Shown piece by piece: positions 10,452 through 64,000 of a stretch of DNA of 64,000 nt. Source of the stretch: an uncultured Gammaproteobacteria bacterium (GTDB taxonomy: Bacteria; Patescibacteriota; Microgenomatia; Daviesbacterales; UBA10151); contig CAYNFQ010000001.1 of NCBI GenBank assembly GCA_964396715.1, forward strand, positions 117,873 through 181,872, written 5' to 3'. Position 1 is the stretch's first letter. Each line of letters starts with the position of its first letter. Below the pieces are notes generated by a model, which did no database searches, was not told the DNA's origin, and worked only from the letters and a program-made list of their open reading frames with translations. The position numbers and the translations under genes are program-made.

Positions 10452-10454
10452 TTA

Positions 10455-20138: not shown

Positions 20139-20188
20139 AAGTTTTGATTATATTATATAATCAAAAGGATTTTAAGTAATTTTTAAAT
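20139..20188. promoter_or_regulatory. Divergent promoter region between minus-strand block and the long plus-strand gene array
   Basis: 50-nt AT-rich gap between divergent genes containing tattatataat (-10-like). Confidence 0.3.
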
Positions 20189-28552: not shown

Positions 28553-28554
28553 TT

Positions 28555-32166: not shown

Positions 32167-32226
32167 ATAAGTTCCAAAATTGCATTATGTAAGCAGAACA
32201 ACTGTATTATACAATATATAGATCTT

Positions 32227-35528: not shown

Positions 35529-35535
35529 TTTCTTA

Positions 35536-45938: not shown

Positions 45939-46264
45939 AAAAAATGTTGCTTAAAACTTTTTTTGTAATAATGTCTTTTTTTATCTTTTGGTGGCTGGAA
46001 TCCGGCTTGAAAATAGAAGAAATTAGCGCAATTATTAAGCCTTTAATATTTGCCCTCTCAGTTTCAATGACTTTTTCAATTAAACTTCGAAGGTATTTAT
46101 TATACATAAGTTTCTTGTTTTATTGTCTGATGATTTTTCTATATTTAATTTGGCAAATAAGCTTAGCAAACCTTGCAGGAAGTTTAGGAATTGGGATACT
46201 GGCTATCTTGATATTTAGCTATTTTGGTGATTTTGTAAAAAGGGGTTTTGTTGAGAAGCTATGA
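45935..46264 (+). CDS. Small (109 aa) membrane protein following giant B2
   Basis: ATGA overlap with giant stop; 3 hydrophobic segments; C-terminal motif shared with 42121..42483. Confidence 0.5.
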   Translation: MKKMLLKTFFVIMSFFIFWWLESGLKIEEISAIIKPLIFALSVSMTFSIKLRRYLLYISFLFYCLMIFLYLIWQISLANLAGSLGIGILAILIFSYFGDFVKRGFVEKL

Positions 46265-46350
46265 AATACCTATTCTCACTTATTTTATTTTTTCTGATAG
46301 TAGCATCGGTATTTTTTTATATTTTGGGGGTTAGATTTAAGAAAAAATGA
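46261..46350 (+). CDS. Micro-ORF, 29-aa single-TM peptide MKYLFSLILFFLIVASVFFYILGVRFKKK
   Basis: ATG overlaps upstream TGA (46261-46264), its TGA overlaps ATG of giant B3 (46347-46350); below ORF-track length cutoff. Confidence 0.35.
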   Translation: MKYLFSLILFFLIVASVFFYILGVRFKKK

Positions 46351-49031
46351 AGAAAAGAATTGCCTTAATGTTTTTTCTGATCTTACCCTTTTTTTGGATT
46401 TTTTGGTTACCTGGCCCTAGGGTGGCAACAGATTATCACCTGACCACAAAGGAAACCCAGCTGGATAACCTGTTTCCCTGGATCTGGAGAGAAACCAGTG
46501 TGGCAGATGGTTTGGGGGAATATACTGCTATTACTCTTTGGTCACAGCCGCTTCATTCATTTTTCGCCAGTCTATATCAGATTAATTTACCTTTTTCATT
46601 TTTGACAAAGCTGCTTGTCGGATTAATTATCCTGCTTAGTATTATTTCCATGCTCAAGCTTTTAGATTATTTGAAAATTAAAAGTCCGTATCAAGAAGTT
46701 GGTGTAATTTTTTACATATTAAATACATTTTTTTTACTTCTCCTTGACGGTGGACAGTTGGCCTTGACACTTGCTTACGCAGTTTTTCCTCTCTCGGTTT
46801 ATTGTTTTCTGCTACTCATGCAAACAGCAAATTTGAAAAGAAGACTTTTATTTGCTTTCAGCGTCCTGGCAATTTCCATATTTGATATCAGGATTGTTTA
46901 TTTGCTGTTTATGGTCTGTGCCATTTTTGTCCTGTTTAAATTTTTTTTATCACCTTCAAAAAAAGAAGTTGTTTTAGTTTTTAAAGAGGTTTTACTATCA
47001 GCAATATTTACCATACTGATAATTTTTCCCTTTCATGCTTACTGGATACTACCTGCTTTAGTTGTTAAGACACCACAGTTGCCGCAGACTTATGAGAGAG
47101 TTTCCCAGATAGATTTTTTAAGCTTTTCCACACTGCTTCATTCCCTAATTTTGAATCAGCCCCACTGGTATAAAAATATCTTTGGTAAAATATCAGAGGT
47201 AAGTTTTGAGTTTTTGCTGATTCCCGCAACAGCTTTTATCTCTTTAGCCCTAGTTAGGAGAAATACCCAGGTTGCTTTCTGGTCACTTATTGCAATCTTG
47301 GGAATTTTTCTCTCCAAGGGTTCAAATCCACCCCTGCCTCAAATTTATTCTTATCTTTTTGCCAGCATTCCCGGATTTTCAATTTTCCGTGATCCTGCCA
47401 AATTTTATTTTCTAATTTGTATCGCGTACACAATATTAATAGGATTTTCTCTTCAGGCGATGGGTAAGTTAGCAAAAATTATCCCATTTGTTTTTCTTTT
47501 GTATATAGTCTGGCTTGCCAGGCCGGTATATCTTGGACAAATGAGCGGACTATTTTCCTTCCCATCTTTTGAAAAAGAATTTAATTTACTATCAGAGGTA
47601 ATAAAAGAAGACAAACAATTCTCCCGGGTTTTCTGGATTCCCAATTCAGCACCTTTAGGTTATGTTGGTCCCAATCACCCGCAAGTTGAAGCTTCCAGGT
47701 TATCTAAAAAAAGGCCTTTTGCCGCAGCAACAGTAGGAACTTATGAGACATTTAATTTCTTAAGAGAGGCACCTTTCATGGGAGAAATTTTTGATGTGTC
47801 GGGGATTGGATATATTGCATATCCCTATATAGACAAACAAAGGGAGGAGGCGGATTTTGATAAAGAAAAATATTACTACACATTTTTAAATCAACTGTCC
47901 AAACTTCCCTGGGTTTCCAAAGTTGAATATTCGGGTATGCCGCTGCTTAAAGTCAAAAATCACCAGGATAAATTTTTTGTTACGGGAAATACCTGGTGGA
48001 TAATAGGGGATGATAGTTTATATAAAGAGTCAACCAAAAGTGCTACGCTTAAATTATCCAAAAACAGTTTGATTTTTACCGAAGAGCATGCGGGTTTGGG
48101 GAAAAGACTGGATGAGGTTTCGGATGCCAAAATTATACTGAATAAAAAAAGCAACATAGACCTTGCAGCAAGTTTTATTGATGCCTCAAAACTTTTTTTT
48201 CCGGCAAAAAGCCTTAATTTCAGTCCCGATGAATCAGGTTGGTGGAAAAGGGAGGCGGTGGATTTGGTTTGGTGGAGAGATTTTTTACAAAACAAATACG
48301 GGATAGATAATAAGGATTTTGATTTAGGAGGAGGATGGGCGGTGGGGGAAGGGTATTCAAAGTTCAAAGTTCAAAGTTCAAAGTTCAAAAAGGACAATAT
48401 TTTGCTGGCAAGAGTAATGGAAAGTTCCAGAAGTGGGAATTTGAAATTTTATCAAGACAATCAACTAATCGGGGAAGTGGGAACTAAAATTAACGGAGAT
48501 GCCAATGTTAGATGGTTTGAAGTAGGGGAGTTAAGTGGAAATGGTAGCGGGATTGCTATAGAGTCCACAGGAGATATTAATGTGGTTAATACATTGGCAG
48601 TTTTGGACAAAAACGACTGGGATAGTTTAAAGGATAAAGCCGATAAGCTGCAGGGGAGAGTGGTAAGTTTTGATGACAAGAGTATACAAAATGTAACCGG
48701 CTCCATGGTTTCTTACCGGAGGATAAACCCCACTAAATATATTGTAAATATAGACGGTTTAACAAAGCCGTCATTGTTAGTATTTTCCCAAAATTATGAT
48801 AGTTTATGGAAGATGAGTGGTCAGACTCCCCTGCCACGTTCAGCTAACATGAACGTGGCTCTGCCGGTGTATAGTTTGCTGAATGGATTTAGAGTGGAAC
48901 AGGACGGAGAGTATATTGTTGAATTTGAGGCGCAAAAGTATGTTTATTTAGGGTTAGCAATCTCCATAATGACTTTGCTTACAATAACTTTTCTACTCAT
49001 CTTAGGCACCAGGAGATCATCTAGGCTATAA
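46347..49031 (+). CDS. Giant (894 aa) polytopic membrane protein, divergent family B paralog
   Basis: N-terminal multi-TM, FRDPAKFYFL (aligns to RNPFEKIG), C-terminal LLNGF...DGEYIVEFEAQKYV like DGEYEFSINFDAQK of B1. Confidence 0.65.
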   Translation: MKKRIALMFFLILPFFWIFWLPGPRVATDYHLTTKETQLDNLFPWIWRETSVADGLGEYTAITLWSQPLHSFFASLYQINLPFSFLTKLLVGLIILLSIISMLKLLDYLKIKSPYQEVGVIFYILNTFFLLLLDGGQLALTLAYAVFPLSVYCFLLLMQTANLKRRLLFAFSVLAISIFDIRIVYLLFMVCAIFVLFKFFLSPSKKEVVLVFKEVLLSAIFTILIIFPFHAYWILPALVVKTPQLPQTYERVSQIDFLSFSTLLHSLILNQPHWYKNIFGKISEVSFEFLLIPATAFISLALVRRNTQVAFWSLIAILGIFLSKGSNPPLPQIYSYLFASIPGFSIFRDPAKFYFLICIAYTILIGFSLQAMGKLAKIIPFVFLLYIVWLARPVYLGQMSGLFSFPSFEKEFNLLSEVIKEDKQFSRVFWIPNSAPLGYVGPNHPQVEASRLSKKRPFAAATVGTYETFNFLREAPFMGEIFDVSGIGYIAYPYIDKQREEADFDKEKYYYTFLNQLSKLPWVSKVEYSGMPLLKVKNHQDKFFVTGNTWWIIGDDSLYKESTKSATLKLSKNSLIFTEEHAGLGKRLDEVSDAKIILNKKSNIDLAASFIDASKLFFPAKSLNFSPDESGWWKREAVDLVWWRDFLQNKYGIDNKDFDLGGGWAVGEGYSKFKVQSSKFKKDNILLARVMESSRSGNLKFYQDNQLIGEVGTKINGDANVRWFEVGELSGNGSGIAIESTGDINVVNTLAVLDKNDWDSLKDKADKLQGRVVSFDDKSIQNVTGSMVSYRRINPTKYIVNIDGLTKPSLLVFSQNYDSLWKMSGQTPLPRSANMNVALPVYSLLNGFRVEQDGEYIVEFEAQKYVYLGLAISIMTLLTITFLLILGTRRSSRL
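48356..48390. repeat. Heptanucleotide tandem repeat (TTCAAAG)x4 + 1 imperfect inside giant B3 CDS (encodes SKFKVQSSKFKK)
   Basis: ttcaaagttcaaagttcaaagttcaaagttcaaaa; same CAAAGTT unit as 13593-13627. Confidence 0.9.
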
Positions 49032-49040: not shown

Positions 49041-50303
49041 ATGCTCAGGACGATCTTAAAAACAGCTACTTTGAGACAATCGAGTATTACTTTTGTAGGG
49101 ACAGTTTTAAATGGGTTTTTGGGAGCACTGTTCTACATAGTTATCGCCAGAATTTTGGGGCCCGCGGAATTTGGCTTACTCACTATCTCCATTACCACCT
49201 TAACACTGATTGCCGACATTTCTGATATAGGTACCAATACCGGCTTAATCAGATTTGTTTCTGCCAATTTAGTATCCAGTAAAGATAAGGCATTAAGGTT
49301 TTTAAGACTCAGTTTAGAGGTAAAATTTTTAGTTTGGGCAGCAGTCTCGGTAATAATTTATTTTGCCTCACCATTTTTAGCAGAAATGGTATTTCATAAA
49401 GAAGAACTGGTTACTCCTCTTCGTCTAGCGGTCATCGGTGTAGGGGGAGCCCTTCTTTTTACATTTGCTACCTCTTCACTTCAGGCTTATCAAAGATATT
49501 TTCTGTGGAGTACAATTAATATTTTGACCAATGCCTTAAGACTTATTTTAATAATTATCTTAGGTACTTTTATACATCTTAATATTGAAAATAGTTTGCT
49601 TATTTATATTACTTTACCTTTTTTTGGTTTTTTTGTTGCCCTATTTTTTCTACCAGCTAGAGAAATTTTAAGAAGTAAAAATGAATTCAGTTTAGCAAAG
49701 GAGCTTTTTCAATATAATATCCCGGTGGCGATTTTTACAGTGATCGCAGCTTTCTCAGCCAGATTAGATATCTACTTAAACGCTGCTCTACTGAGCGCCC
49801 ATAAGGTAGGTATTTATGGAGCAGCCACTCAACTGGTTCAGGTGATGCCGCAACTGGTATCGGCTATTGGATTGGTTGCTGCGCCCAAATTTGCCAGCTT
49901 TCAAAACGATGAACAGATGTTAGTGTATTTAAAAAAACTACAGCTTTTAGTGACAGGGTTATGCTTAGCAGGAATTCTATTCATCCCTTTTGTTATTTAC
50001 CTGATACCGCTGCTTTTCGGAACCCAATATCAGGAGGCAATATTACCCTTTATATTTTTATTTTTTGCTATGTTAGTATTTCTTTTCTCAGTACCCGTTC
50101 ATAACAGTGTGATTTTTTATTTTGGCAGACCGGATGTTTTCATCTGGGTTTCCATAGGACATTTATTAATAATCGGGGGGTTAGGGTATTTGATGATTTC
50201 CAACTTGGGAATGGTGGGAGCATCGATTACAGTACTGATAGGAACAACTTTTAACTTTTTATATCCATTAGCGTGGATGCTTTTGAAGTTAAGGAAAAAA
50301 TAA
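49041..50303 (+). CDS. Wzx-like oligosaccharide flippase (MOP/polysaccharide biosynthesis protein family)
   Basis: 420 aa, ~12 TM segments, N-terminal pattern typical of PF01943-type flippases. Confidence 0.7.
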   Translation: MLRTILKTATLRQSSITFVGTVLNGFLGALFYIVIARILGPAEFGLLTISITTLTLIADISDIGTNTGLIRFVSANLVSSKDKALRFLRLSLEVKFLVWAAVSVIIYFASPFLAEMVFHKEELVTPLRLAVIGVGGALLFTFATSSLQAYQRYFLWSTINILTNALRLILIIILGTFIHLNIENSLLIYITLPFFGFFVALFFLPAREILRSKNEFSLAKELFQYNIPVAIFTVIAAFSARLDIYLNAALLSAHKVGIYGAATQLVQVMPQLVSAIGLVAAPKFASFQNDEQMLVYLKKLQLLVTGLCLAGILFIPFVIYLIPLLFGTQYQEAILPFIFLFFAMLVFLFSVPVHNSVIFYFGRPDVFIWVSIGHLLIIGGLGYLMISNLGMVGASITVLIGTTFNFLYPLAWMLLKLRKK

Positions 50304-50304
50304 A

Positions 50305-51096: not shown

Positions 51097-51788
51097 GTGA
51101 TCCTTCTTCTTTTCAAACATTGGAATCAATGAGTCAGGCTGTCTGGTATAACCAGTGGACTTTAAAACTCTTTGCCAAATATTTAAAAGGAGATATCCTG
51201 GAGGTTGGTTGCGGAATAGGAAATTTTACCAAATCTTTACTAAAATACGGTAAAGTTTGGGCCGTAGATATTAATAGAATATATATAAGCAATATTAAAA
51301 AAGAACAGGGGGATAAAGTGCGGGTTGGGTTTGGTGATATTGCAAAAGGAAAATATTTTTTTGGTAAGCGGAATTTTGATAGCATCGTTTGCCTAAATGT
51401 TCTGGAACATATTGAGAAAGACGATACGGCATTAAAAAATTTATTTGATCTTTTACAAAACAACGGAACTTTAATTCTACTAGTGCCGGCCCACCCTTTT
51501 CTTTATGGCGAAATTGACAGATCAATAGGTCACTTCAGAAGGTATTCTAAAAAAGAATTATTAAACATAATGGAAAGTATAGGCTTTAATATTATTGAAT
51601 CCTGGAGAATAAACTTTTTGGGGGCAATAGGTTGGTTTATTGCGGGAAGGATTTTGAACGAAAATAAAGTTGAAAATGAAAAAATAAAAATATTTAATTT
51701 ATTGGCACCCTTTTTTTTGGCGATTGAAAATATCATTGAACCGCCAATCGGGACTTCTATACTGGTAGTTGCGCAGAAAAAAATATGA
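51093..51788 (+). CDS. Class I SAM-dependent methyltransferase
   Basis: ILEVGCGIGNFTKSL motif I, LNVLEHIEKDD. Confidence 0.75.
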   Translation: MSDPSSFQTLESMSQAVWYNQWTLKLFAKYLKGDILEVGCGIGNFTKSLLKYGKVWAVDINRIYISNIKKEQGDKVRVGFGDIAKGKYFFGKRNFDSIVCLNVLEHIEKDDTALKNLFDLLQNNGTLILLVPAHPFLYGEIDRSIGHFRRYSKKELLNIMESIGFNIIESWRINFLGAIGWFIAGRILNENKVENEKIKIFNLLAPFFLAIENIIEPPIGTSILVVAQKKI

Positions 51789-52525
51789 AAACGCTTTCCA
51801 TTATTATTCCTGTATATAACGAGGAAAAAACTGTTGGAGTATTATTAGGAAAGGTAGTAGATGCGAAATTACCCGCAGGTTTCAAAAAAGAAATAATTAT
51901 TATTGATGATGGATCAACCGATAAAACTGAATCAGTTTTATCGAAATGTCAAATGTCAAACCTGTCTGCCGTCAGGCAAGATGTCAAATGTCAAATTTTT
52001 AGACATAATACAAATCAGGGTAAAGGTGCTGCCATAAGAACAGGTTTAAAGCATGTGACAGGAGACTATATTATTATCCAGGATGCGGACTTGGAATATA
52101 ATCCTGCTGATTATAAAGAGTTGCTTAAGCCGATTTTGGAAAAAAAGGCTAAGGTAGTATACGGCACCAGGTTAAAAAACTATCCATTAAGGTTGTGGGG
52201 GGAAAATAAGACAATACTGCCCTTGCATTTAATAGCAAATAAGTTTTTAACTTTTATGACAAATATGCTTTATGGAAGTAAACTCTCTGATATGGAAACC
52301 TGTTATAAATTATTGACAAAAAATGTCCTAACTGGTTTTGATTTGCAATCAAACAGATTTGAAATTGAACCGGAGATAACCGCCAAAATATTAAAAAGAG
52401 GATTTTCAATTTTAGAAATCCCGATCAAAGTTACTCCCAGAACACACAAAGAAGGTAAAAAAATCAGCTGGAAAGATGGATTTAGGGCTGTATTTAGCTT
52501 AGTTAAATATCGATTTTATGACTAG
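51785..52525 (+). CDS. GT2 polyprenyl-phosphate sugar synthase (DPM1/ArnC-like), paralog of 7739..8455, carrying an in-frame repeat insertion
   Basis: LSIIIPVYNEEKTV...IIIDDGSTDKT, QDADLEYNP; insertion CQMSNLSAVRQDVKCQI absent from paralog. Confidence 0.75.
   Translation: MKTLSIIIPVYNEEKTVGVLLGKVVDAKLPAGFKKEIIIIDDGSTDKTESVLSKCQMSNLSAVRQDVKCQIFRHNTNQGKGAAIRTGLKHVTGDYIIIQDADLEYNPADYKELLKPILEKKAKVVYGTRLKNYPLRLWGENKTILPLHLIANKFLTFMTNMLYGSKLSDMETCYKLLTKNVLTGFDLQSNRFEIEPEITAKILKRGFSILEIPIKVTPRTHKEGKKISWKDGFRAVFSLVKYRFYD
51944..51994. repeat. Composite element inside GT2 CDS: (AAATGTC)x2 - 20-nt core cctgtctgccgtcaggcaag - (ATGTCAA)x2; the core is the reverse complement (1 mismatch) of the 28-nt repeat unit at 61240-61312
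   Basis: Read directly; reverse complement of cttgcctgtcggcagacagg (61255-61274) is cctgtctgccgacaggcaag. Confidence 0.8.
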
Positions 52526-53984
52526 AAAAATTATATTTTTTTTAGGGTTAATAGTATTATTATCAGCTTTCTTAAGATTTTATCATCTGGGAAACAATTA
52601 TATTTTTGGGTTTGATGAAGAGTATCAGGCCACATATGCTATGACTTTGGTTAAGGATATTCATCCTATTTGGATTGGTGTAAGCGCCTCATTTTTGGAT
52701 TATTATTTAGGCCCTTACTTTACTTATTTTAGTGCTTTCTGGCTGATGCTTTCCCAGGGCGATCCTCTGATGACAGCCTATGTTGCCGCTACTGCGGGTG
52801 TTATTACGACAATCGTGATATTTTTTGTGGGGTGGAAATTTTTCAATTTAACTGCCGGAGTGGTCAGCTCGCTTCTCTACGGTGGATTGTCATTGATTGT
52901 TTTTTATGACCAAAAATATTGGAATCCGATGTTTGTCCCCCTCATTGTGCTTTTGATGTTTACTTCCCTTTTGCTGATAAAAAGATCGCCCTGGTGGTGG
53001 TTGCTTTACTCTGCAACGGTAGGGGCAATCTTTGAAACCGACCTTGCTCCCCTGCCGCTGGTGTTAATTGGAGTTTGGTATTTTATAAAAGGAAAATATT
53101 TTCTCAACAAGAGGCTTACTTTAGGCTGTCTTGCGGTATTCCTTTTGTTTTATTGGCCGCTTTTAGTTTTTGACTATCACCATAACTTTAGCAATCTGAC
53201 GGTTTTAGCAAGATACAGTCAGCAGGCAAAACAATCCGGAGCTAAATTTGACCCCAAGAGTAAATTAATGTCAGTTGCAGATACCATGGGCAGGTTTTGG
53301 TATTTAAAACCGGGAGCTCCTAATGCTGATGAATTAAATATTTTTTGCAACTCTCAAAGAACATATCCCTCTCCCTGGGTTTCCGGCATATCTGCTATCT
53401 TACTTTTATATTTTATTAGTACAAGTATTAAAACAGGGAAGAGAGCACATAAGATGCTGGTATATTTTTTGGTAGTATCACTGGGATTTTATTTAATTTA
53501 TACAGGCGGTTCTTTTGAATATTATCTTCATGGTTTCATCACTTTGTTTACTTTAACTGTGGGGATTTTAGTCAGCCAACTTAATAAAAAACTTCAGCCG
53601 GCAGCTTTAATTTTAGTAGCAGTGATTTTAGTATTAGGATTTAACACGGTTTTAAATTCATCAGACAAATATAGCTTGGCACCAAAGAAAAAATTAATAG
53701 CTGAAGTAATGTCGGTGGTTGGCCCCAACAGTTTTTCCATAGATCAGATGGGTACTTGCCACATTTATGAAGGGTGGAGGTATTTATTTAAAATTTACGG
53801 AAAAACACCCTCCATGAGTTTTACAGATCAAAACTTTGCCTGGTTATATCCCCAAGAGGTTAATGATGGCTCCCTCAACTATCATGTAATTTTATCGGAA
53901 TATGGAGTAACTCCGGATCGAGATTTAAGCGGATACGTTAATATTAATGAAGGAGGTTTTTCCGCCTATATTAAAAAAAATTGA
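52518..53984 (+). CDS. GT-C fold membrane glycosyltransferase, ArnT/PMT-like (GT39/GT83)
   Basis: N-terminal LRFYHLGNNYIFGFDEEYQATYAMTL (DE motif in first loop), 488 aa, ~11 TM; follows a polyprenyl-P-sugar synthase GT2. Confidence 0.7.
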   Translation: MTRKIIFFLGLIVLLSAFLRFYHLGNNYIFGFDEEYQATYAMTLVKDIHPIWIGVSASFLDYYLGPYFTYFSAFWLMLSQGDPLMTAYVAATAGVITTIVIFFVGWKFFNLTAGVVSSLLYGGLSLIVFYDQKYWNPMFVPLIVLLMFTSLLLIKRSPWWWLLYSATVGAIFETDLAPLPLVLIGVWYFIKGKYFLNKRLTLGCLAVFLLFYWPLLVFDYHHNFSNLTVLARYSQQAKQSGAKFDPKSKLMSVADTMGRFWYLKPGAPNADELNIFCNSQRTYPSPWVSGISAILLLYFISTSIKTGKRAHKMLVYFLVVSLGFYLIYTGGSFEYYLHGFITLFTLTVGILVSQLNKKLQPAALILVAVILVLGFNTVLNSSDKYSLAPKKKLIAEVMSVVGPNSFSIDQMGTCHIYEGWRYLFKIYGKTPSMSFTDQNFAWLYPQEVNDGSLNYHVILSEYGVTPDRDLSGYVNINEGGFSAYIKKN

Positions 53985-53985
53985 T

Positions 53986-54927
53986 ATGAAAATTGCATTT
54001 TTAAGCAGGTATCAGGGTCAAATTCATCGGGGGGCAGAGAATTTTGTCAGTGAAATTATTCTCCGGTTATCTAAAAAATATGAGGTAGAAATACTGGCGG
54101 GTAAAGAGGCGGATGCTTTGACTAAAATATTAGCAGGACACTACGATATTGTAATTCCCGTCAATGGCAGGTTGCAAAGTCTGATGGCTTCATTGGGAAG
54201 ATTGACAGGGGGATATAAACTGCTGATCACTGGTCACAGCGGCATTGGCCGGGATGACATTTGGAATATCGCAGTTGCAAAGCCTGATGTATTTGTGGCA
54301 CTAACGGATTACATGGCAAACTGGGCCAAAAAATGGGCTTGGGGTACAAAGGTTGTAAAAATCCCAAACGGTATAGACATAAACAAATTTACCCCCAATG
54401 GAGAAAAAATCATAATTGACTTACCCAGACCGATCATTTTATCTGTCGGAGCTTTGGTTTGGTACAAACATCATGAAAGGGTAATCAGGGCAATTAGGGA
54501 TATTGGATATGGGTCGGTTTTAATTGTCGGCGGGGGGCCGGAAAAAGAAAACTTGGAAAAATTAGGCAGAAATCTTTTGGGTAAAAGATTTAAGTTGGCA
54601 AGTTTTAAATATGAGGATATGCCGAAAGTATACAGGTCTTGTAACCTGTTTAGTCTGCCTTCCTGGGATCGGGAAGCCTTTGGTTTGGTTTATCTTGAGG
54701 CGCTCTCTTCTGGTTTAGGAATTGTTGCGCTTGATGATTTATCCAGACGTGAGATAATAGGGGAGGTGGGGATATTAACCGATGTGTCTGATGTCAAAAA
54801 ATATGCCCAGGCTATAAAAGCAGCTTTGGCGGTTAATTGGGAAAGCAGGGCAGTTGAGCAGGCCAAAAAATTTTCCTGGGATAAAGTGGCTAAAAAATAT
54901 GAGGAGGTAATTGAGGAAATTTTATGA
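53986..54927 (+). CDS. GT4 (GT-B) glycosyltransferase
   Basis: REAFGLVYLEALSSGLGIVALDD signature; start at Met14 of ORF, just after upstream stop. Confidence 0.7.
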   Translation: MKIAFLSRYQGQIHRGAENFVSEIILRLSKKYEVEILAGKEADALTKILAGHYDIVIPVNGRLQSLMASLGRLTGGYKLLITGHSGIGRDDIWNIAVAKPDVFVALTDYMANWAKKWAWGTKVVKIPNGIDINKFTPNGEKIIIDLPRPIILSVGALVWYKHHERVIRAIRDIGYGSVLIVGGGPEKENLEKLGRNLLGKRFKLASFKYEDMPKVYRSCNLFSLPSWDREAFGLVYLEALSSGLGIVALDDLSRREIIGEVGILTDVSDVKKYAQAIKAALAVNWESRAVEQAKKFSWDKVAKKYEEVIEEIL

Positions 54928-55682
54928 TTTCAACAGTGGTAGTGACTTTCAATGAAGCGGGACTTTTGAAAGATTGTTTGGCATCTGTCGTTCAAGAGAG
55001 TGATGAAATTGTTATCCTAGATTTAGGATCAGAGGATGACACTTTAAAAATTGCCAAAAGCTTGCAAGCTAAAATTTTTACCCATGCAAGGGTTGAGTAT
55101 GTAGAAGGGGTCCGTGATTTTGCTGTTGCAAAAGCAAAAGGGGATTGGATACTGGTTTTGGATCCCGATGAGAGAATGACTCCTAATTTATGGAAGAAAC
55201 TGAAGGAGATAATCTCAGATGATAAATATGTGGCGGTAAAGATCCCCAGAAAAAATATTTTCTTTGGTCATTGGATTGCCCATACTAATTGGTGGCCTGA
55301 TCAGCATGTCAGGTTTTTCAAAAAAGGAAAAGTCAGTTGGTTACCTAAAATCCACCTTTATCCTAAGGTAGATGGTCAAGTTTTAGAATTGAGTGCCACA
55401 GAAGATTTAGCCATGGTGCATTATGGTTATCAAAGTGTAAACCAGTTTATTAACAGACAAAGCAGGTACGCCACAATCAAGGCACAAAATTTATATGATG
55501 AGGGTATGAGATTTTCCTGGGTTTCCTTTTTTGGGAACCCGGTCAGGGAATTTCTGGTCAGATACATCAGGCATTTAGGCTTTTTGGACCACTTTTATGG
55601 TTTTGCCCTGACATATCTGATGATGGTTTATCAGATTGAGGTGCAGATTAAACTGTGGGAGCTTAAGAAAAACCAAACATGA
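54924..55682 (+). CDS. GT2 glycosyltransferase
   Basis: ISTVVVTFNEAGLLKDCLASV, LDLGSEDDT, DPDE motif. Confidence 0.7.
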   Translation: MISTVVVTFNEAGLLKDCLASVVQESDEIVILDLGSEDDTLKIAKSLQAKIFTHARVEYVEGVRDFAVAKAKGDWILVLDPDERMTPNLWKKLKEIISDDKYVAVKIPRKNIFFGHWIAHTNWWPDQHVRFFKKGKVSWLPKIHLYPKVDGQVLELSATEDLAMVHYGYQSVNQFINRQSRYATIKAQNLYDEGMRFSWVSFFGNPVREFLVRYIRHLGFLDHFYGFALTYLMMVYQIEVQIKLWELKKNQT

Positions 55683-57082
55683 TATGGGCAATTCTTTTAT
55701 TGGGGTTAATATTAAGGCTGATCAGCTTAGATCAAAGCCTTTGGCTGGATGAGGCAATTAATGTTTTGGCAACCCAAAAGTATTCTTTTGCAGGCATGAT
55801 AACAGAATATGCCAAGGCTGATTTTCACCCACCCGGCTTTTTTATCATCTTGTGGTTTTGGACCAAACTTTTCGGATACTCTGAAATTGCTGTCAGGATT
55901 CCTTCGGTGATTTTTGGGGTGGTAACAATTGGGAGCATCTATTTAATCGGCAAAAAGCTGCATTCCCGAAAAGCAGGACTTATTGCCGCTTTGCTTTTAA
56001 GTATTAACCCCTTGCACATTTATTACAGCCAGGAAGCCAGGATGTATGCACTGGCTACTTTGGCAGTCTCGATAAATATGTTTTTAGTGATAAAATTTGT
56101 CAGAGAAGAAAAATTCAACTTAATTTTTTTGGCTATCAGTAATTTGGCAGTTTTGGCATCTGATTATGTTGCCTACTTTATTTTTCCCGCCCAAGCTTTT
56201 TTTCTGCTGATGATTGGGAAAAAGGAGATAATCAGGAAATGGACTATAGCGTTAGTTAGCGCCTTGGCTTTAGGTTTATGGTGGCTGCCGGTATTTTTGA
56301 ACCAGCTAAATGTCGGATCTATTGCATCTGCCAATTTACCGACCTGGAAATTTGTGGCGGGAGCTTTTGATTTTAAAACTTTGCCTCTCACCTTTGTAAA
56401 ATTTATCATCGGCAGAATAAATCTTTCTGATAAGCTTACTTATGCAGCAGTTTTATTGCCACTTTGCACTCTTTGGGGGTATCTCTTATTAAGAGGCGTT
56501 AAATCATGGAGTAATTCCTTGAGGAAATTACTTATTGTCTGGATTGTTATTCCCCTTGCATTAGCAACTCTTATTTCATTTGTAGTGCCTGTATACAATT
56601 ATTTTAGAGTTTTATATGTTTTACCTGCATTTATTATTTTGCTATCTTTGGGGATTTTGTCTTTTGAAAGCAAAAAAAAGTATATTTTTTTGAGCGCGGT
56701 GGTGTTAATAGAACTATTTTGCGCGCTGGTTTATTTATTAAATCCCGCATATCAGAGGGAAGACTGGAAGGGACTAGTTAATTATTTTGAAAACTTGGAT
56801 TCAATTATTTTATTTGAAAGTTCCGGGACGCTGCCCCCTTTTGATTATTATGCAAAGGGTAGATTGAAAGCAAAAGGAGCCTTAAAAGATTTTCCTATCA
56901 GAGATGAGAGGGGTGTTGTTGATTTGGAAGATGGTGAAAAAGATGTTTATCTTGTTGATTATTTGGTGCAAATAAGCGACCCCGACAGGTTGGTTGCCAA
57001 AAAACTCACAGGTTTAGGATACAATGTTTCTGATACAAAAGATTTCAGGGGAGTGGGATTTGTTTATCATTATACCAAGTAA
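55679..57082 (+). CDS. GT-C fold membrane glycosyltransferase, GT39 (ArnT/PMT-like, polyprenyl-phosphate-sugar dependent)
   Basis: LISLDQSLWLDEAI, DFHPPGFF, RIPSVIFG, YYSQEARMYA - canonical GT39/83 N-terminal motifs. Confidence 0.8.
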   Translation: MIWAILLLGLILRLISLDQSLWLDEAINVLATQKYSFAGMITEYAKADFHPPGFFIILWFWTKLFGYSEIAVRIPSVIFGVVTIGSIYLIGKKLHSRKAGLIAALLLSINPLHIYYSQEARMYALATLAVSINMFLVIKFVREEKFNLIFLAISNLAVLASDYVAYFIFPAQAFFLLMIGKKEIIRKWTIALVSALALGLWWLPVFLNQLNVGSIASANLPTWKFVAGAFDFKTLPLTFVKFIIGRINLSDKLTYAAVLLPLCTLWGYLLLRGVKSWSNSLRKLLIVWIVIPLALATLISFVVPVYNYFRVLYVLPAFIILLSLGILSFESKKKYIFLSAVVLIELFCALVYLLNPAYQREDWKGLVNYFENLDSIILFESSGTLPPFDYYAKGRLKAKGALKDFPIRDERGVVDLEDGEKDVYLVDYLVQISDPDRLVAKKLTGLGYNVSDTKDFRGVGFVYHYTK

Positions 57083-57085
57083 TCT

Positions 57086-58423
57086 ATGAGCAAATTAATG
57101 CTTATTTTGATAATCGCGGCACACTTGTCTGTTTTGTCCAAACTGATTTTTTTTCCTTACCCGGAATTTTTTGTTTATCCCTATTTAACCAATGCAGGCT
57201 TAAAACCATACAGCCAGATACTGGATCAACATTTTCCGGGGCTGATGTTTTTGCCCTTCAATTTTGATAATTTGGGGATGAATGATGAGATTGTTGCCAG
57301 AATGTGGTTGATGGCCCTTGTTATTATAACCCAGCTGTTAATTTTTTTTGTAAGCAGGGAAATATTCAAAAGCGAAAAAAAGGCTCTAGTTGTTAATTTG
57401 CTTTATTTAATTTGGCAGCCTTTTTTTGAAGGTTGGGTTCTTTGGATCGATACTTTTTTGCCATTAATTTTATTGCCAGCTTTTTATGCTTTGTATAAAG
57501 ATAAGATTTTTTTAACAGGACTTTTACTGGGAATGGGTATAGTTTTTAAACAGGTACTGATCCCGCTCTCGGGGTTGGTTTTAATTTATTTGATCTGGGA
57601 GATCAGGAAGATGAGGGTGATTGGGAGATATCTATTTGGCTTAAGTTTGCCTGTTATTTTAATGGTTACCTACTTTTTTTCAATAGGGGTCATAAAAGAT
57701 TTTTGGTATTGGACAATTGTTTTTAATCTGACAACTTTTGCACAGTATGGCAGAAAAGGGCCATTTTTTACAGGAGTTGCCAGAGTAGGTTTTGCCATTG
57801 CCGCCTCATGTGGGGTCTTTTTCTCAAAAGATAAAAGGATGGTTAAAACTCTGATTATTTTTGTTCTTGGATCACTGGCGGCGCTTTATGCCCGTTTTGA
57901 TTTTGTTCATTTTCAACCGGCATTGCCTTTTGTGTTGATTGCCACAGTTTTAGGATTTAGTGCAATATGGAAACAAAAATGGGCCCGATTGATACTAACA
58001 GGTTATCTTGTGGTGATTGTTTGGTGGTTATCAGTTTTTTACAGCGGGCATTTATCAAACAAGGTCATGTTTTTTGATGAGCACACCAAAGCAATTGCTC
58101 AAAAGATCAGACAATATACAAAAGAGGGAGATAAAATTTTTATTTTTGGGGCAGTGCCGCATCTTTACCAGATGACAAAAACAAAACCTGCTGGAGATGT
58201 ATTTGTTTTTCAATTCCCCTGGTTTGTCATGGTAACAGAGGAAAGACTACTTGAGGGTTTAAAAAAAGATCATCCGGAAATTGTGGTTTCGGACAGGACT
58301 GTTGCAATAGAAGGGCAAAAGATCACTGAATTTGGGAAAGGATTGGATGAATATATTCAGCAAAATTACCAAGCGGTTGACCAAGTAGGATCTACCCAAA
58401 TTTTGCGTAAATTTACCCACTAA
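57086..58423 (+). CDS. Polytopic membrane protein with C-terminal soluble domain; possible GT-C (GT87/DUF2029-like) transferase
   Basis: 445 aa, ~9-10 hydrophobic segments then hydrophilic ~110-aa tail; no firm motif. Confidence 0.45.
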   Translation: MSKLMLILIIAAHLSVLSKLIFFPYPEFFVYPYLTNAGLKPYSQILDQHFPGLMFLPFNFDNLGMNDEIVARMWLMALVIITQLLIFFVSREIFKSEKKALVVNLLYLIWQPFFEGWVLWIDTFLPLILLPAFYALYKDKIFLTGLLLGMGIVFKQVLIPLSGLVLIYLIWEIRKMRVIGRYLFGLSLPVILMVTYFFSIGVIKDFWYWTIVFNLTTFAQYGRKGPFFTGVARVGFAIAASCGVFFSKDKRMVKTLIIFVLGSLAALYARFDFVHFQPALPFVLIATVLGFSAIWKQKWARLILTGYLVVIVWWLSVFYSGHLSNKVMFFDEHTKAIAQKIRQYTKEGDKIFIFGAVPHLYQMTKTKPAGDVFVFQFPWFVMVTEERLLEGLKKDHPEIVVSDRTVAIEGQKITEFGKGLDEYIQQNYQAVDQVGSTQILRKFTH

Positions 58424-58441
58424 TCTGCTAGAATGTAGATT

Positions 58442-60579: not shown

Positions 60580-60591
60580 AAGATTGAGCTC

Positions 60592-61209: not shown

Positions 61210-61847
61210 AGAAATTTCCAATCTCTCGACTTCGCTCGAGACAGGTTTTCAATCTTGCCTGTCGGCAGACAGGTTTTCAATCTTGCCTGTCGGCAGACAG
61301 GTTTTCAATTTTTTTACTGTTCTCTTTTTTACTGTTTATTTATATGGTTTGGCCTTCACCTTCTGCCATAGCGGATTTTAAGTCTCTGCCAAATTCTCAA
61401 AAATCGCGCCTGGAGGGTGACACAATACAAATCCCCAATGTTGCCGCTTATTTTTCCAATCACTACCGTGAATTTGTGGTGCCTTTTTATGCAAAAAATT
61501 ACCGGTTAAAGGTGAATTTGCCAATTCCCCCGCTCAGATTAAATCACCCGCCCGAATTTTCCTGGATTACAATAAAAAAACATACGGATTCCACCTATCT
61601 TGAGGAGTTGGTTTATCCTTTAAGAGATTCGTTGTTTGTAAACGGATATGAGCCATTTTATCCTGATGGGTCACCTAAATTTTGGGGGTCAACAAAATTT
61701 GAGGTTGACGGAAATCTTTGGGAGACCAAAACTACCTTGAGGTTTTACCACTCGAGTATTTGGATCAGACTGCTTGTTTGGTTTGGAATAACTTTATCCA
61801 TTTTTCTGCTATATAAAATGACTAAAAAAATTATATTTAATAAATGA
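61206..61847 (+). CDS. Hypothetical bitopic membrane protein (N- and C-terminal TM segments, central extracytoplasmic domain); 5' coding region contains the 28-nt tandem repeat
   Basis: ATGA overlap with acetyltransferase stop; residues 12-36 encoded by the repeats in shifting frames; no family recognised. Confidence 0.45.
61240..61312. repeat. Tandem direct repeat, 28-nt unit gacaggttttcaatcttgcctgtcggca x2.6; adjacent units form hairpin CCTGTC-ggca-GACAGG
   Basis: Read directly; two perfect copies (61240-61267, 61268-61295) plus 17-nt partial third. Confidence 0.9.
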
Positions 61848-63256
61848 AAATATTTTTTTTTGAAAAACTACTTTTTTATTCGGTTGTATTTCTTTTTGTC
61901 TTTATCCCCTTATATCCGAAATTTCCGCTGTTTAATATTGCCGCTACATTTGTTGCTGTCAGGATAGAAGATTTAATTATTGCCGGCTTTTTATCCTTGT
62001 GGGTTATTTATATTGTCTTATCCGGTCGGATAAAAGAAGTATTATTAACCAAGCTGACTCTTGTCATGCTTCTATTTTTTGCAATTGGAGCACTATCTAC
62101 TTTTTCTGCAATTTTTTTAACACAAACTGTTATTTGGCATTTGTCTATACTGCATTTTTTAAGAAGGGTGGAGTTTATGTTACTGATGGTTGTTGTTGCC
62201 ACAATTGTTAAAAATAGCAAACAACTGGTTACAATTTTAATTAGTTTGGCATTTGTGTTACTTTTGGTTAATCTATATGCTTTGGGCCAGCAATTTTTGG
62301 ACTGGCCAGTTATTTCCACAACCAACTCCGAATTTTCCAAAGGCTTAATTTTGAGGCTTACTCCAGGTGCAAGAGTAAATTCAACCTTTGCCGGACATTA
62401 TGATCTGGCTGTATTTTTGGCCATGGCAATCACCATACTTACTACAATGTTTTTTGCCGTCAGAAAAACTTTGAAGATTGGGGTTTTCGGACTGGGAGCT
62501 TTATCAGGACTGGTTTTAATAATGACTGCCGCCAGGCTTTCTTTTGTCGCCGCATTTGTGGGAATAATTACTGCATTGCTTTTAACACGTCAGAAAAAGT
62601 ATATACTTTTTATCATTATTGCCGTCGGGCTAATTTTAATATACCCGTCGCAACTGAGAGATAGACTTTTCTCCACCATTACGGTTAATCTATTCCAGCA
62701 GGGGCAAAGATACGAGGGGAGAAGTGAAGATCAGCAGATCAGAAGCAAATTAAACATCCCCACTTTGGCAATAAAAACATCCTCTCAATCAGCAGAAACT
62801 TCCACATTTGCAAGCGACTCAGCTGCATTTGCAACAGATATTGCCCCCGGAGAGCCGGTTGATACCACTCAGCTGGGGGTTTACAGATCTTTTCAAATTA
62901 GGCTGCAGATCGAATGGCCCAGGGCAGTCAATGCTTTTTTGAAAAACCCCTTTTTGGGAACCGGTTATTCCTCGCAAGGATTGGCAACGGATAATGATTT
63001 TTTAAGGTCTCTGGCTGAGGTTGGACTTTTGGGTACGATTGCGTTTGGGTTAATTTTAGTGGAAGTTGGAAAAAGGATCTATTGTTGTTTTAGCAATGTA
63101 AGTAAAATAATACGCTATTTTTCTGCCGGGGTTTTTGCCATGATTATCACCTTTTTGGTCAACGGCTTATTTATTGATGTTTTTGAGGCTTCCAAGGTGG
63201 CGTCACTTTTTTGGATGACAGTAGGTTTAAGTTTGGCGGCATTGAAATTTAAATGA
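61844..63256 (+). CDS. O-antigen ligase/polymerase-like (Wzy_C-type) polytopic membrane protein
   Basis: 470 aa, ~12 TM with large Ser/Thr/Ala-rich extracytoplasmic loop (residues ~290-350), conserved His in loop before TM9. Confidence 0.5.
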   Translation: MKIFFFEKLLFYSVVFLFVFIPLYPKFPLFNIAATFVAVRIEDLIIAGFLSLWVIYIVLSGRIKEVLLTKLTLVMLLFFAIGALSTFSAIFLTQTVIWHLSILHFLRRVEFMLLMVVVATIVKNSKQLVTILISLAFVLLLVNLYALGQQFLDWPVISTTNSEFSKGLILRLTPGARVNSTFAGHYDLAVFLAMAITILTTMFFAVRKTLKIGVFGLGALSGLVLIMTAARLSFVAAFVGIITALLLTRQKKYILFIIIAVGLILIYPSQLRDRLFSTITVNLFQQGQRYEGRSEDQQIRSKLNIPTLAIKTSSQSAETSTFASDSAAFATDIAPGEPVDTTQLGVYRSFQIRLQIEWPRAVNAFLKNPFLGTGYSSQGLATDNDFLRSLAEVGLLGTIAFGLILVEVGKRIYCCFSNVSKIIRYFSAGVFAMIITFLVNGLFIDVFEASKVASLFWMTVGLSLAALKFK

Positions 63257-64000
63257 AATTTTTTAAAATTTTTAAAAACCCATATGTATATTTGGTTCTG
63301 ATTATACTGGCAGGATTTTTTGTCAGGCTTTATAGAATTGATGCGCCGATTGCTGACTGGCATTCCTGGAGGCAGGCTGATACAGCTGCTGTCACCAGAA
63401 ATTTTATTAAAGAGGGGTTTAACCCATTATTACCCAGATATGATGATATGTCGGCTAATGCTGAAACGCCTATTTCCAATCCAAACAGGTTTAGATTTGT
63501 GGAGTTTCCGTTTTACAATATTTTTGTTTATCCCTTTTATTTAATATTCGGAATTAGCGAGATGTACCATAGGTTGGTTTCCATTATTTTTTCTCTGGGG
63601 AGTGTTTTATTTCTTTATTTGATTGTGAAAAAGTATGCAGATCAGATAACAGCCTTAGTGTCTGCCTTTTTCTTTGCCTTACTTCCTTTTAATGTATTTT
63701 TCTCCAGAACTACTCTGCCCGAGCCGACATTTGTTTTCTTTGCCTTGGGGATGATCTATTTTGTGGACAGGTGGATTTGGGAAGGTAGGGGTATTTTGAG
63801 ACTTTGGGGATTTGTATTTGCTGCAACTTCATTTTTGATTAAGCCCTGGGCAATATTTTTTTATTTGCCGCTTTTTTACTCAGTTTTAAAAAAGAGCATC
63901 ACCCGTAAATTATTTCTACAATTTATGCTTTTTTCTGTCATTGTTTTGCTCCCTTTTATGTTATGGAGACTTTGGATTTTGCAGCAGCCGGAAGGGATAC
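63253..64000 (+). CDS. Partial (N-terminal ~249 aa) GT-C fold GT39 family glycosyltransferase, runs off window end
   Basis: Manual translation from ATG 63253 (ATGA overlap): RLYRIDAPIADWHSWRQADTAAVTRNF - hallmark of GT39 phospholipid-carrier-dependent glycosyltransferases; no stop before 64000. Confidence 0.7.
   Translation, partial: MKFFKIFKNPYVYLVLIILAGFFVRLYRIDAPIADWHSWRQADTAAVTRNFIKEGFNPLLPRYDDMSANAETPISNPNRFRFVEFPFYNIFVYPFYLIFGISEMYHRLVSIIFSLGSVLFLYLIVKKYADQITALVSAFFFALLPFNVFFSRTTLPEPTFVFFALGMIYFVDRWIWEGRGILRLWGFVFAATSFLIKPWAIFFYLPLFYSVLKKSITRKLFLQFMLFSVIVLLPFMLWRLWILQQPEGI

Follow-up and report, generated by a model that had tools for sequence, protein, structure and literature searches.

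The DNA analysed here, a window of 64 kb with 56 genes from the groundwater CPR bacterium Candidatus Daviesbacteria, encodes at least nine GT-C glycosyltransferases and two DPM1-type GT2s, raising the question of which glycosylation system these enzymes form. An earlier note had read a GT2-GT-C gene pair, together with amino-sugar genes elsewhere in the window, as a near-complete analogue of the Arn pathway. The window is a very large surface-glycan gene island; all of the open reading frames that the note had named exist at the positions it gave, and the features discussed below are named by their start positions (Table 1). Pfam scans covered 57 ORFs tiling the window, including the partial gene at 63253 and every ORF of at least 100 aa outside those genes.

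Table 1. Glycosyltransferase, flippase, polymerase, and sugar genes in the 64-kb window.
Feature	Position	Strand	Evidence
Second DPM1-like GT2	7739..8455	+	Paralogue of 51785, 38.5% identity, full length
Conserved amino-sugar module	15008..21106	.	GFO 3-dehydrogenase-like, hexapeptide N-acetyltransferase, DegT, UXS-like SDR, GT-C (minus strand), ArnA-N-like formyltransferase
DegT	16508		
UXS-like SDRs	17658 and 9393		
Additional GT-C, within amino-sugar module	18624..20138	-	No Pfam match
Formyltransferases	20189 and 30749		
PIG-L	31488		28.8 bits vs cut-off 28.2, borderline
Four AftD-like GT-Cs (32128, 38636, ~42471, 46347) with GT4, GT2, and methyltransferase genes	32128..49031	+	PF11847
Wzx-type (MOP) flippase	49041..50303	+	PF01943 1e-20, PF13440; position conserved in relatives
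GT2dpm, 246 aa, putative polyprenyl-phosphate sugar synthase	51785..52525	+	PF00535 3e-34
GT-C fold glycosyltransferase, divergent PMT_2-like family	52518..53984	+	~11 hydrophobic segments
GT4 (GT-B), cytoplasmic glycosyltransferase	53947..54927	+	PF00534 2e-22; kept in operon of relatives
GT2b, soluble GT2	54924..55682	+	PF00535 1e-22; PDB GmaR 65 bits, SunS 42
GT-C, PMT_2 family ("GT39" in NCBI naming)	55679..57082	+	PF13231 4.9e-17, 63.0 bits
Probable GT-C	57086..58423	+	~9-11 hydrophobic segments and C-terminal soluble domain
Wzy_C-family polymerase or ligase	61844..63256	+	PF04932 1.2e-10
GT-C, PMT_2/PMT type, incomplete at window end	63253..64000	+	PF13231 1.3e-13, 51.9 bits

By homology, GT2dpm is a GT2 of the DPM1/AglJ/GtrB/ArnC superfamily. 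Its best NCBIfam matches were AglJ (112 bits, the highest), ArnC (62), and PpgS (48), all under cut-off, along with PgfS. When the family profile was compared with PDB sequences, Pyrococcus DPMS ranked first (5mlz; 88.6 bits, E 4e-24, positions 3-233), followed by GtrB (77.7 bits) and ArnC (71.6), above all generic GT2s; each of these three, the best solved relatives of GT2dpm, is a polyprenyl-phosphate glycosyltransferase. Alignment to DPMS extends through the entire catalytic domain and takes in the C-terminal R..GxSK-like segment; the family conserves the motifs DDGSTD, QDADLEY, and PRxxxEGKK, whose core residues are invariant. A GT-A domain, a DxD (DAD) motif, and full catalytic-domain homology thus place it, by prediction, among the GT2s that glycosylate polyprenyl phosphate (Pren-P). 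No hydrophobic segment of the protein exceeded the threshold for a TM helix, and the pair of C-terminal TM helices typical of ArnC (in a protein of ~320 aa) is absent; aligned as a single sequence, GT2dpm matched ArnC over residues 2-115 only. The product of GT2dpm is probably a sugar linked to polyprenyl phosphate, formed on the cytoplasmic side of the membrane. This enzyme and the GT2 at 7739 (AglJ 95 bits, PpgS 56, and, scored as ORF 7682-8455, ArnC 60.1) probably both load sugars onto a lipid carrier; in principle, a TM-less DPM1-like GT2 could act on a non-lipid acceptor. The previous description of 51785 as a DPM1/ArnC-like GT2, and of 7739 as a second GT2 of this sort, is retained. ArnC itself was rejected as an identity for either protein, the scores being 62.4 (51785) and 60.1 bits (ORF 7682-8455) where the equivalog cut-off of NF007986 is 529 bits.

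GT2dpm belongs to an operon of 15 co-directional genes (49041 to 64000) separated by overlaps or gaps of at most 18 nt and encoding Wzx, GT2s, GT4s, GT-Cs, and Wzy. The order Wzx-GT2a-MT-GT2dpm-...-GT-C-GT-C-...-Wzy-GT-C is kept in ~17 loci from Daviesbacteria/Patescibacteria MAGs at 50-75% identity, and the operon is conserved across Daviesbacteria/Microgenomates MAGs; every version keeps exactly one GT2dpm-type GT2 and three to four GT-Cs. The operon also contains an O-acetyltransferase and several GT4s, and the Wzx at 49041 is its only candidate flippase. GT2b resembles GmaR/SunS protein or peptide glycosyltransferases and, by homology, is not of the DPM1 type; its gene lies ahead of those of the following two GT-Cs in all related loci covering that stretch. 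No phosphoglycosyl transferase (PF02397 or PF00953) was found in the 64 kb by Pfam scans, which fits priming on Pren-P. A small GtrA-family flippase (PF04138) had no Pfam match anywhere in the window, which encodes a Wzx-type flippase instead, and membership in a three-component Gtr-type system was rejected on this basis. Two small membrane proteins (42121 and 45935) had no Pfam match.

The start of the GT-C gene at 52518, the second member of the pair that had been noted, overlaps the stop codon of GT2dpm by 8 nt. About half of the related loci do not keep this adjacency, the orthologous GT-C sitting five genes downstream there. In five loci (L005, L011, L017, L018, and L027), GT2dpm is followed by the GT4, and the closest 52518 orthologues (61-76% identity) come after GT4_58442. 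The 52518 protein had no Pfam or NCBIfam match and no PDB sequence match, alone or as a profile, though many of its homologues carry PF13231; its family shows an invariant acidic DEE motif following TM1. Both 55679 (LDEA motif after TM1) and 63253 exceeded the Pfam gathering score of PMT_2 (PF13231, 26.1 bits), consistent with their earlier designation as GT39-type enzymes. Both also matched the Agl23-like TIGR03663 (60.8 bits, under cut-off, for 55679), and hhalign linked 63253 to the 55679 family with 95.7% probability; the partial 63253 protein was the only one to reach the cut-off of PF02366 (PMT; 23.8 vs 22.7 bits). For 55679, no PDB sequence match was found, and its score against the MT1671 mannosyltransferase model was 43.7 of 900 bits. 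The protein at 57086, proposed as a possible GT-C, scored below the PMT_2 cut-off (2e-4, 22.0 bits) and was not linked to other GT-C families by hhalign; 10 of its 16 orthologues matched PMT_2 (best 2.5e-11), which upholds the proposal. The earlier note missed the GT-C at 18624-20138, which contains no WWDxG oligosaccharyltransferase motif, and the four AftD-like GT-Cs, which match one another in BLAST (hhalign probability of 99.6% for 46347 against the AftD-like set) in a stretch co-directional with the operon. An STT3/AglB/PglB oligosaccharyltransferase was rejected for want of a C-terminal soluble domain with the WWDxG motif. Pfam covers two of the GT-C families only in part (52518) or not at all (18624), and an orphan 13-TM family (870, 5314) may also be GT-C.

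Given the observed enzyme families, folds, operon membership, and conservation, we consider it fairly probable that this region belongs to an envelope-glycan operon, conserved in Daviesbacteria/Microgenomates, that works as a multicomponent transmembrane glycosylation system; the lipid acceptor of GT2dpm, the topology, the pairing of GT-Cs with donors, the sugar, and the final acceptor are inferred. GT2dpm, probably held at the membrane by an amphipathic C-terminus or a partner protein, would transfer a sugar from a nucleotide sugar to polyprenyl monophosphate at the cytoplasmic face. The lipid-linked sugar would then be either flipped unchanged or first extended by the GT4/GT2 enzymes of the operon, a route modelled on Lactococcus WpsA and Haloferax AglJ; in Lactococcus, cytoplasmic glycosyltransferases extend the Pren-P-sugar first (PMC10821137). 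The Wzx-type flippase would carry it across the membrane, and the GT-Cs at 52518, 55679, 57086, and 63253, with the Wzy-like protein, would attach it to, or polymerise it on, a polymer or protein of the cell surface; a single Pren-P synthase probably supplies several GT-Cs. Several points count against this mechanism: none of the proteins reached an equivalog cut-off, the GT2-GT-C adjacency is not conserved, and no GtrA-type flippase or GacJ/WpsB-like partner was recognised in the window. A Wzx found alongside a Wzy is a further such point, as it usually signals repeat units linked to Und-PP, whose priming enzyme may be encoded beyond the window; the possible non-lipid acceptor of GT2dpm is another. 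The general logic put forward earlier (i.e., a Pren-P sugar synthase inside and a GT-C with a lipid-linked donor outside) is supported by homology and fold. Because systems combining a GT2, a flippase, and a GT-C are widespread in Gram-positive bacteria, and also in mycobacteria and archaea, such a system is not surprising in a monoderm, contrary to the earlier note; this type of machinery is already well known from all three groups, and nothing ties it specifically to Arn. For Gram-positive bacteria, its wide occurrence is described in three sources (PMC10821137, PMC5836110, and PMC12041528), and the combination of a TM-less GacI/WpsA-type GT2, a Wzx-type flippase, and a GT-C has a precedent there (PMC10821137).

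The operon might instead serve protein O-glycosylation of a PMT-like or Agl-like kind, in which the GT2 would make a Pren-P-hexose and PMT_2-type GT-Cs would modify secreted, S-layer, or pilin proteins at Ser/Thr (or Asn), on the model of actinobacterial Pmt, streptococcal PgfS/PgfM, or Haloferax AglJ/AglS. AglJ as the top NCBIfam hit of the two DPM1-like GT2s, the Agl23-like matches of 55679 and 63253, the PF02366 match of 63253, the resemblance of GT2b to GmaR and SunS, the small Ig-like/Glucodextran_B proteins encoded after distant 52518 paralogues (L022 and L023), and a streptococcal precedent (PMC12041528) all point this way. We judge this alternative unlikely, however, since the GT-Cs showed no PMT equivalog-level match and no PMT_4TMC or MIR domains, 18624 lacks WWDxG, the window holds no candidate gene for a Ser/Thr-rich substrate, and the gene content of the operon (Wzx, Wzy-like, several GT4s, an O-acetyltransferase) is that usually seen where polysaccharide repeat units are assembled. 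The results do not amount to a simple O-mannosylation system of PMT and DPM1, which the earlier note had itself set against its reading.

An Arn-like pathway in the window is improbable. In such a pathway, a UXS/ArnA-like SDR would decarboxylate UDP-GlcA, with transamination by DegT and N-formylation to follow; an ArnC-like GT2 would place the aminopentose on Pren-P, PIG-L would replace ArnD in deformylation, and, after flipping, an ArnT-like GT-C would attach the aminopentose to a surface molecule. The DegT, UXS-like SDR, formyltransferase, and PIG-L genes invoked for these steps are all present, and the amino-sugar module recurs in the same order in L034, with related GFO-Hex-DegT-SDR-DegT-FT arrays in L035 (Microgenomates) and L036 (Gemmataceae). 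SDR 17658 carries the motif TSEVYG, as against TDEVYG, which we take to be the dehydratase type, and has human UXS1 as its second-best PDB match (150 bits; ArnA-C ~100). The closest PDB match of formyltransferase 20189 is the ArnA N-domain (130 bits vs 119 for Fmt), and homologues of this protein in three other genomes lie in sugar-gene arrays, including SDR-DegT-FT runs, a context that supports 20189 as a sugar N-formyltransferase. The module has its own embedded GT-C (18624), and GT2dpm has ArnC as one of its three best solved relatives. However, NCBIfam scores were far below the equivalog cut-offs (ArnC 62/529 for GT2dpm, ArnB 228/631 for DegT, and ArnA 194/777 for 20189 and 123/777 for 17658), and ArnA/ArnB identity was rejected for 17658, DegT, and 20189; other models gave 126/294 (UDP-4-keto-pentose synthase, 17658) and 209/316 (PRK06988, 20189). 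DegT scored higher on PseC (265 bits) and directly follows a UDP-GlcNAc 3-dehydrogenase-like GFO and an N-acetyltransferase, with which, judging from sequence, it is a WbpB/E/D-type 3-amino-sugar trio. The ArnD-like deformylase proposed as a check was not found, there being no CE4 protein (PF01522), Ugd (UDP-glucose dehydrogenase), ArnE/F, or EamA/SMR protein among the 57 ORFs tiling the window; PIG-L is borderline, and its fold differs from that of ArnD. GT2dpm lacks the ArnC helices and aligns better to DPMS. The GT-Cs have the GT-C fold of ArnT (GT83), but in fold they are no nearer to ArnT than to ALG12, ALG9, PMT, or STT3, and ArnT membership was rejected: no ArnT model (NCBIfam; 52518, 55679, 57086, and 63253) and no ArnT chain (PDB; 52518 and 55679) was matched. 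The neighbours of the 18624 family vary among genomes (e.g., carbamoyltransferase, 2-epimerase, and rhamnose genes). The sugar genes thus survive as a conserved SDR/DegT/formyltransferase module, which probably makes a formamido sugar, but not as an Arn set belonging to the pair, from which the module lies ~30 kb away; in relatives, the 49-64 kb operon is not accompanied by it.

Slightly less credible still is a coincidental GT2-GT-C adjacency, with 51785 an ordinary cytoplasmic repeat-unit GT2 of a Wzx/Wzy pathway and the GT-Cs using lipid-linked donors produced elsewhere; with so many GT-Cs among the 56 genes, a GT2 could well lie beside a GT-C by chance (about 1 in 6), the pair is separated in about half of the related loci, and most of the distant 52518 paralogues are solitary, but the GT2dpm profile places the three structures of Pren-P glycosyltransferases ahead of every generic GT2 and covers the full domain, and exactly one such GT2 accompanies the GT-Cs in every operon version.

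Among the known systems compared with the favoured multicomponent system, the closest are the Gram-positive GacI/GacJ/GacK/GacL (S. pyogenes), WpsA/WpsB/WpsG/WpsH/WpsJ (Lactococcus), and CsbB/GtcA/YfhO (Bacillus, Listeria). These share a DPMS-like GT2 making C55-P-sugar (TM-less in GacI and WpsA), a Wzx-type flippase, and GT-Cs that transfer or polymerise outside the membrane, and the prior extension of the Pren-P-sugar by cytoplasmic glycosyltransferases in Lactococcus (PMC10821137) matches the present operon, which is rich in GT4/GT2 genes and has no phosphoglycosyl transferase. Unlike them, the operon described here has no recognised GacJ/WpsB (DUF2304) or GtrA homologue and combines three to four GT-Cs with a Wzy_C protein; the sequences are only distantly related, and the CPR host has no known rhamnan or teichoic-acid acceptor. 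The Haloferax volcanii Agl system (AglJ, AglD, AglR, AglS, AglB) is similar in its AglJ, in polyprenyl-monophosphate priming, in a Wzx-like flippase, and in GT-C transferases, but the AglJ scores (112 and 95 bits) fall well short of the equivalog cut-off (325), a WWDxG domain of the STT3/AglB type is lacking, and the host is a bacterium, not an archaeon. The Arn system for lipid A aminoarabinose (PmrF/ArnC - ArnT) shares the Pren-P glycosyltransferase superfamily of ArnC and the three kinds of sugar gene; it differs in the TM helices of its GT2, in ArnD, Ugd, and ArnE/F, in the linkage of its sugar genes, and in acting on lipid A, which a monoderm lacks. The mycobacterial envelope set (Ppm1/PpgS; PimE, Aft, Emb, AftD) resembles the window in its many GT-Cs, Pren-P-sugar donors, and wall glycans built outside the membrane, with four AftD-like proteins encoded directly upstream of the operon and PpgS-type TM-less GT2s among the NCBIfam matches; unlike that set, the window shows no DPA (DprE/UbiA) genes, contains Wzx and Wzy, and has very low identities.

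The CPR operon would add a multicomponent transmembrane glycosylation system to an already known type. [quoted passage not shown] Were this so, the donors might include formamido and C-methyl-branched pentoses or hexoses, and the strategy would be mycobacterium- or archaeon-like, of a kind not previously described for CPR, with a possible tie to host-cell attachment.

The window derives from a MAG of Candidatus Daviesbacteria (Microgenomates group of the CPR/Patescibacteria): the protein encoded at 52518 is 100% identical to NCBI HYZ05_02730, and several more window proteins have exact matches on the same 236,765-bp contig. The G+C content is ~35% along the whole window, coding sequence makes up ~99% of the 64 kb, and nearly all genes with a recognisable family are involved in sugar or glycan metabolism. 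All un-nested genes of at least 100 aa from 32128 to the window end are located on the plus strand; because 15 successive genes from 49041 on either overlap by 4–38 nt or have gaps of ≤18 nt, this stretch represents one operon. A promoter and terminator scan showed no difference from shuffled sequence. The 64 kb contains Wzx, a Wzy-like protein, and at least 17 glycosyltransferases, yet no phosphoglycosyl transferase (PF02397 or PF00953) that would initiate synthesis was found.

Table. Glycosyltransferase, sugar-metabolism, and membrane-protein genes of the window.
Feature	Coordinates	Strand	Match or property
Orphan membrane proteins (three paralogues)	870-3143; 5314-~7665; N-terminal fragment ~860->1	-	
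Second DPM1-like GT2	7739-8455		full-length paralogue of 51785, 38.5% identity
Cupin (FdtA-like), sugar C-methyltransferase, SDR, GFO oxidoreductase	8446-12144	-	PF08421/PF08484 (C-methyltransferase)
Formyltransferase	20189-21106	+	NCBI name 'methionyl-tRNA formyltransferase'
HxlB, ribulose-phosphate 3-epimerase, 530-aa protein, KdsC/YrbI-like phosphatase	21103-24409	+	
CapF-like split pair (SDR + Polysacc_synt_C cupin), CapE/FnlA-like dehydratase, UDP-GlcNAc 2-epimerase	27351-30761	+	
Four AftD-like GT-Cs	32128; 38636; ~42471; 46347		
Two small membrane proteins	42121-42483; 45935-46264	+	109-120 aa, 3-4 TM
DPM1-like GT2	51785-52525		246 aa; PF00535 3e-34; no predicted TM helix
GT-C	52518-53984		
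Soluble GT2	54924-55682	+	nearest solved relatives: Listeria flagellin glycosyltransferase GmaR, peptide S-glycosyltransferases SunS, ThuS
GT-C	55679-57082		PMT_2 4.9e-17
Probable GT-C	57086-58423		sub-threshold itself; PMT_2 in 10/16 orthologues, best 2.5e-11
GT-C	63253->		PMT_2 1.3e-13; PMT 23.8 bits

The GT2 and GT-C genes pointed out in the earlier note were confirmed and extended to two DPM1-like GT2s and nine GT-Cs in 64 kb, eight of the latter identified by Pfam, fold, or profile comparison and one (57086) probable. The Arn side of the labels "DPM1/ArnC-like" for 51785 and "ArnT/PMT-like" for 52518 was not supported. The best NCBIfam matches of 51785 were AglJ (112 bits), ArnC (62), PgfS (58), and PpgS (48), with no model's equivalog cut-off approached. 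As a single sequence, 51785 matched Pyrococcus DPMS over residues 4–230, while its ArnC match was limited to the N-terminal 115 residues; a family profile derived from 14 sequences (orthologues and paralogues) ranked DPMS at the top (88.6 bits, E = 4e-24, profile positions 3–233), followed by GtrB (77.7) and ArnC (71.6), with all generic GT2s lower. DDGSTD, QDADLEY, DMETCYK, and PRxxxEGKK are conserved in the family, and core residues are invariant. These matches, the DPMS alignment, the profile ranking, and the motifs place 51785, at the sequence level, in the polyprenyl-phosphate glycosyltransferase superfamily, nearest the DPMS/AglJ type; identity as an ArnC orthologue was rejected on the sub-cut-off score, the partial alignment, and the first rank of DPMS. 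GT2 54924 resembles GmaR and SunS, not DPMS, and is located directly 5′ of GT-Cs 55679 and 57086 in every related locus covering that stretch.

The 52518 protein has ~11 hydrophobic segments and no sequence match in Pfam, NCBIfam, or PDB, profile search included. Its homologues (n = 220) belong to Daviesbacteria/Patescibacteria where a source is named, and many carry a precomputed PMT_2 match. An AlphaFold model based on a 26-sequence alignment was confident (pLDDT 85.6, pTM 0.87); D33-E34-E35 is invariant in the family immediately after TM1, the position where GT-C catalytic acids are located; and hhalign aligned the family with that of 55679 (80% probability, E = 1.4e-5, 317 columns). The 52518 protein is a GT-C, without special affinity for ArnT. 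The 57086 and 18624 families could not be linked to other GT-C families by hhalign.

A genome scan placed the 52518 family at 25 loci; where the taxon label is informative, the MAG is assigned to Daviesbacteria, Microgenomates, Woesebacteria, or Patescibacteria, and the rest are labelled generically. Approximately 17 loci have the operon in common (50–75% identity), in the order Wzx-GT2a-MT-GT2dpm-[GT-C]-GT4-GT2b-GT-C-GT-C-GT4-[GT-C]-GT4-acetyltransferase-u61206-Wzy-GT-C. In these otherwise collinear operons the 52518-type gene is found at either of two positions, immediately 3′ of the DPM1-like GT2 (position A; the window and loci L001–L003, L008–L010, L012, L014, L016, and L024) or five genes on, after GT4_58442 (position B; L004–L007, L011, L017, L018, and L027); some genomes (L006, L013, L014, and L016) have two copies. 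Operon membership of 52518 is therefore conserved, and the GT2/GT-C "pair" is not. The nearest orthologues of the window protein (61–76% identity) are in position-B loci, indicating rearrangement inside the operon. Distant paralogues of 52518 (34–42% identity) are mostly solitary; at L022 8475-9185 and L023 8512-9243, genes for small Ig-like/Glucodextran_B-domain proteins lie immediately 3′ of such a paralogue, and these proteins may be candidate glycoprotein substrates. Several operon-bearing public MAGs (L005, L010, L012–L015, L017, L018, L020, L022, L024, and L027) are titled "uncultured Gammaproteobacteria bacterium ... binchicken"; this taxon name is probably wrong or no more than a placeholder, as the operon was otherwise found here in Patescibacteria MAGs only.

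Each operon has one DPM1-like GT2 to three or four GT-Cs, and a generic mechanism, in which lipid-linked sugars would serve GT-Cs, is supported with moderate confidence. AglJ/AglS of Haloferax works along the same lines, as do the Ppm1/PpgS-plus-GT-C networks of mycobacteria. A WpsA/AglJ-type route, with the glycan primed on polyprenyl phosphate, is plausible because no phosphoglycosyl transferase is encoded in the 64 kb whereas Wzx, GT4s, and GT2s are. In Gram-positive GacI/WpsA-type systems, such polymers can even be built on C55-monophosphate (PMC10821137), and CsbB/GtcA/YfhO do the same job for teichoic acids (PMC10821137; PMC5836110, PMC12041528). Since CPR bacteria are regarded as monoderm-like (PMC6744442), such a system, previously called surprising in a monoderm, is rather to be expected.

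An Arn-specific reading, in which the locus would be a near-complete analogue of the lipid-linked aminopentose pathway, is unsupported and improbable. The UXS-like SDR, DegT, and formyltransferase on which it was built are present: for SDR 17658, which has a TSEVYG motif, human UXS1 is second among PDB matches (150 bits; ArnA-C, ~100 bits) after entry 8VR2, for which a literature search found no relevant paper; DegT 16508 scores 228 bits against ArnB; and formyltransferase 20189 resembles the ArnA N-domain slightly more than it does Fmt. However, Arn-model scores were all far under the cut-off, and no Ugd, CE4 deformylase, or ArnE/F was found in the window. PseC scores above ArnB for DegT 16508, which lies directly 3′ of a UDP-GlcNAc 3-dehydrogenase-like GFO gene and an N-acetyltransferase gene, and the PIG-L protein is a borderline match whose fold differs from that of ArnD. 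Moreover, this amino-sugar module is 30 kb away from 51785 and 52518 and has a GT-C of its own (18624), a family whose neighbour genes vary from genome to genome.

The 20189 protein is probably a misnamed sugar N-formyltransferase, because its orthologues (46–58% identity; one from a planctomycete) are located within sugar-gene arrays, GFO-acetyltransferase-DegT-SDR-(GT-C)-FT in another Daviesbacteria genome (L034) and GFO-Hex-DegT-...-SDR-DegT-FT in L035 (Microgenomates) and L036 (Gemmataceae). A housekeeping Fmt, suggested by the NCBI name and the HxlB-type isomerase and rpe genes 3′ of it, was rejected given these arrays and the lack of conservation of the hxlB/rpe adjacency.

Three further sugar-gene sets were noted. 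The 8446-12144 set, convergent with the second DPM1-like GT2 (7739), as a whole suggests a C-methyl-branched sugar, possibly with UDP-GlcA as its source; the signature of its SDR (SSEIYGDP...GPRACYDESKR) is strongly UXS-like. The 21103-24409 genes, located within the glycan island and including the 6-phospho-3-hexuloisomerase HxlB (188.6 bits, above the cut-off of 160) and the 530-aa protein with a nucleotidyltransferase-like N-terminus, may represent a sugar-phosphate activation route. The 27351-30761 genes, with a CapE/FnlA-like dehydratase (PF02719, 326 bits), are classic UDP-L-FucNAc-type genes.

The second DPM1-like GT2 is flanked by genes of the 870/5314 family (~757 aa, ~13 TM), which has the conserved motif GGD..Y..A.SFARGNYP...PWQPD and comprises only 122 representative clusters among 1.84 billion proteins. 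None of 37 diverse members had a Pfam match, no PDB profile match was obtained, and hhalign was not significant; a further type of GT-C is one possible identity for this family. Proteins 42121 and 45935, the two small membrane proteins, are each encoded 3′ of a giant AftD-like GT-C gene, a layout also present at L035 937-1287 (Microgenomates), and may be GT-C partner subunits. A GacJ/WpsB- or GtrA-like partner was looked for and not recognised; neither of these two has a Pfam match, and both follow AftD-like genes, not the GT2.

To our knowledge, CPR bacteria cannot be grown alone. CPR surfaces are thought to mediate host-cell attachment; literature searches combining CPR with GT-C or glycosyltransferases found nothing specific. 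The mechanism class is already well established, and the interest, which is modest, is in organism and family discovery rather than new biology: the CPR context, the GT-C density, two newly recognised GT-C families, an unclassified membrane-protein family, and corrected annotations (two "hypothetical" proteins are GT-Cs and a "methionyl-tRNA formyltransferase" probably N-formylates a sugar). The locus provides as candidates one putative polyprenyl-phosphate-sugar synthase, several GT-Cs, and one formamido-sugar module. In this Daviesbacteria lineage, a stretch of at least 64 kb that is conserved in relatives is given over to glycan assembly, in which GT-C enzymes predicted to act outside the membrane predominate.
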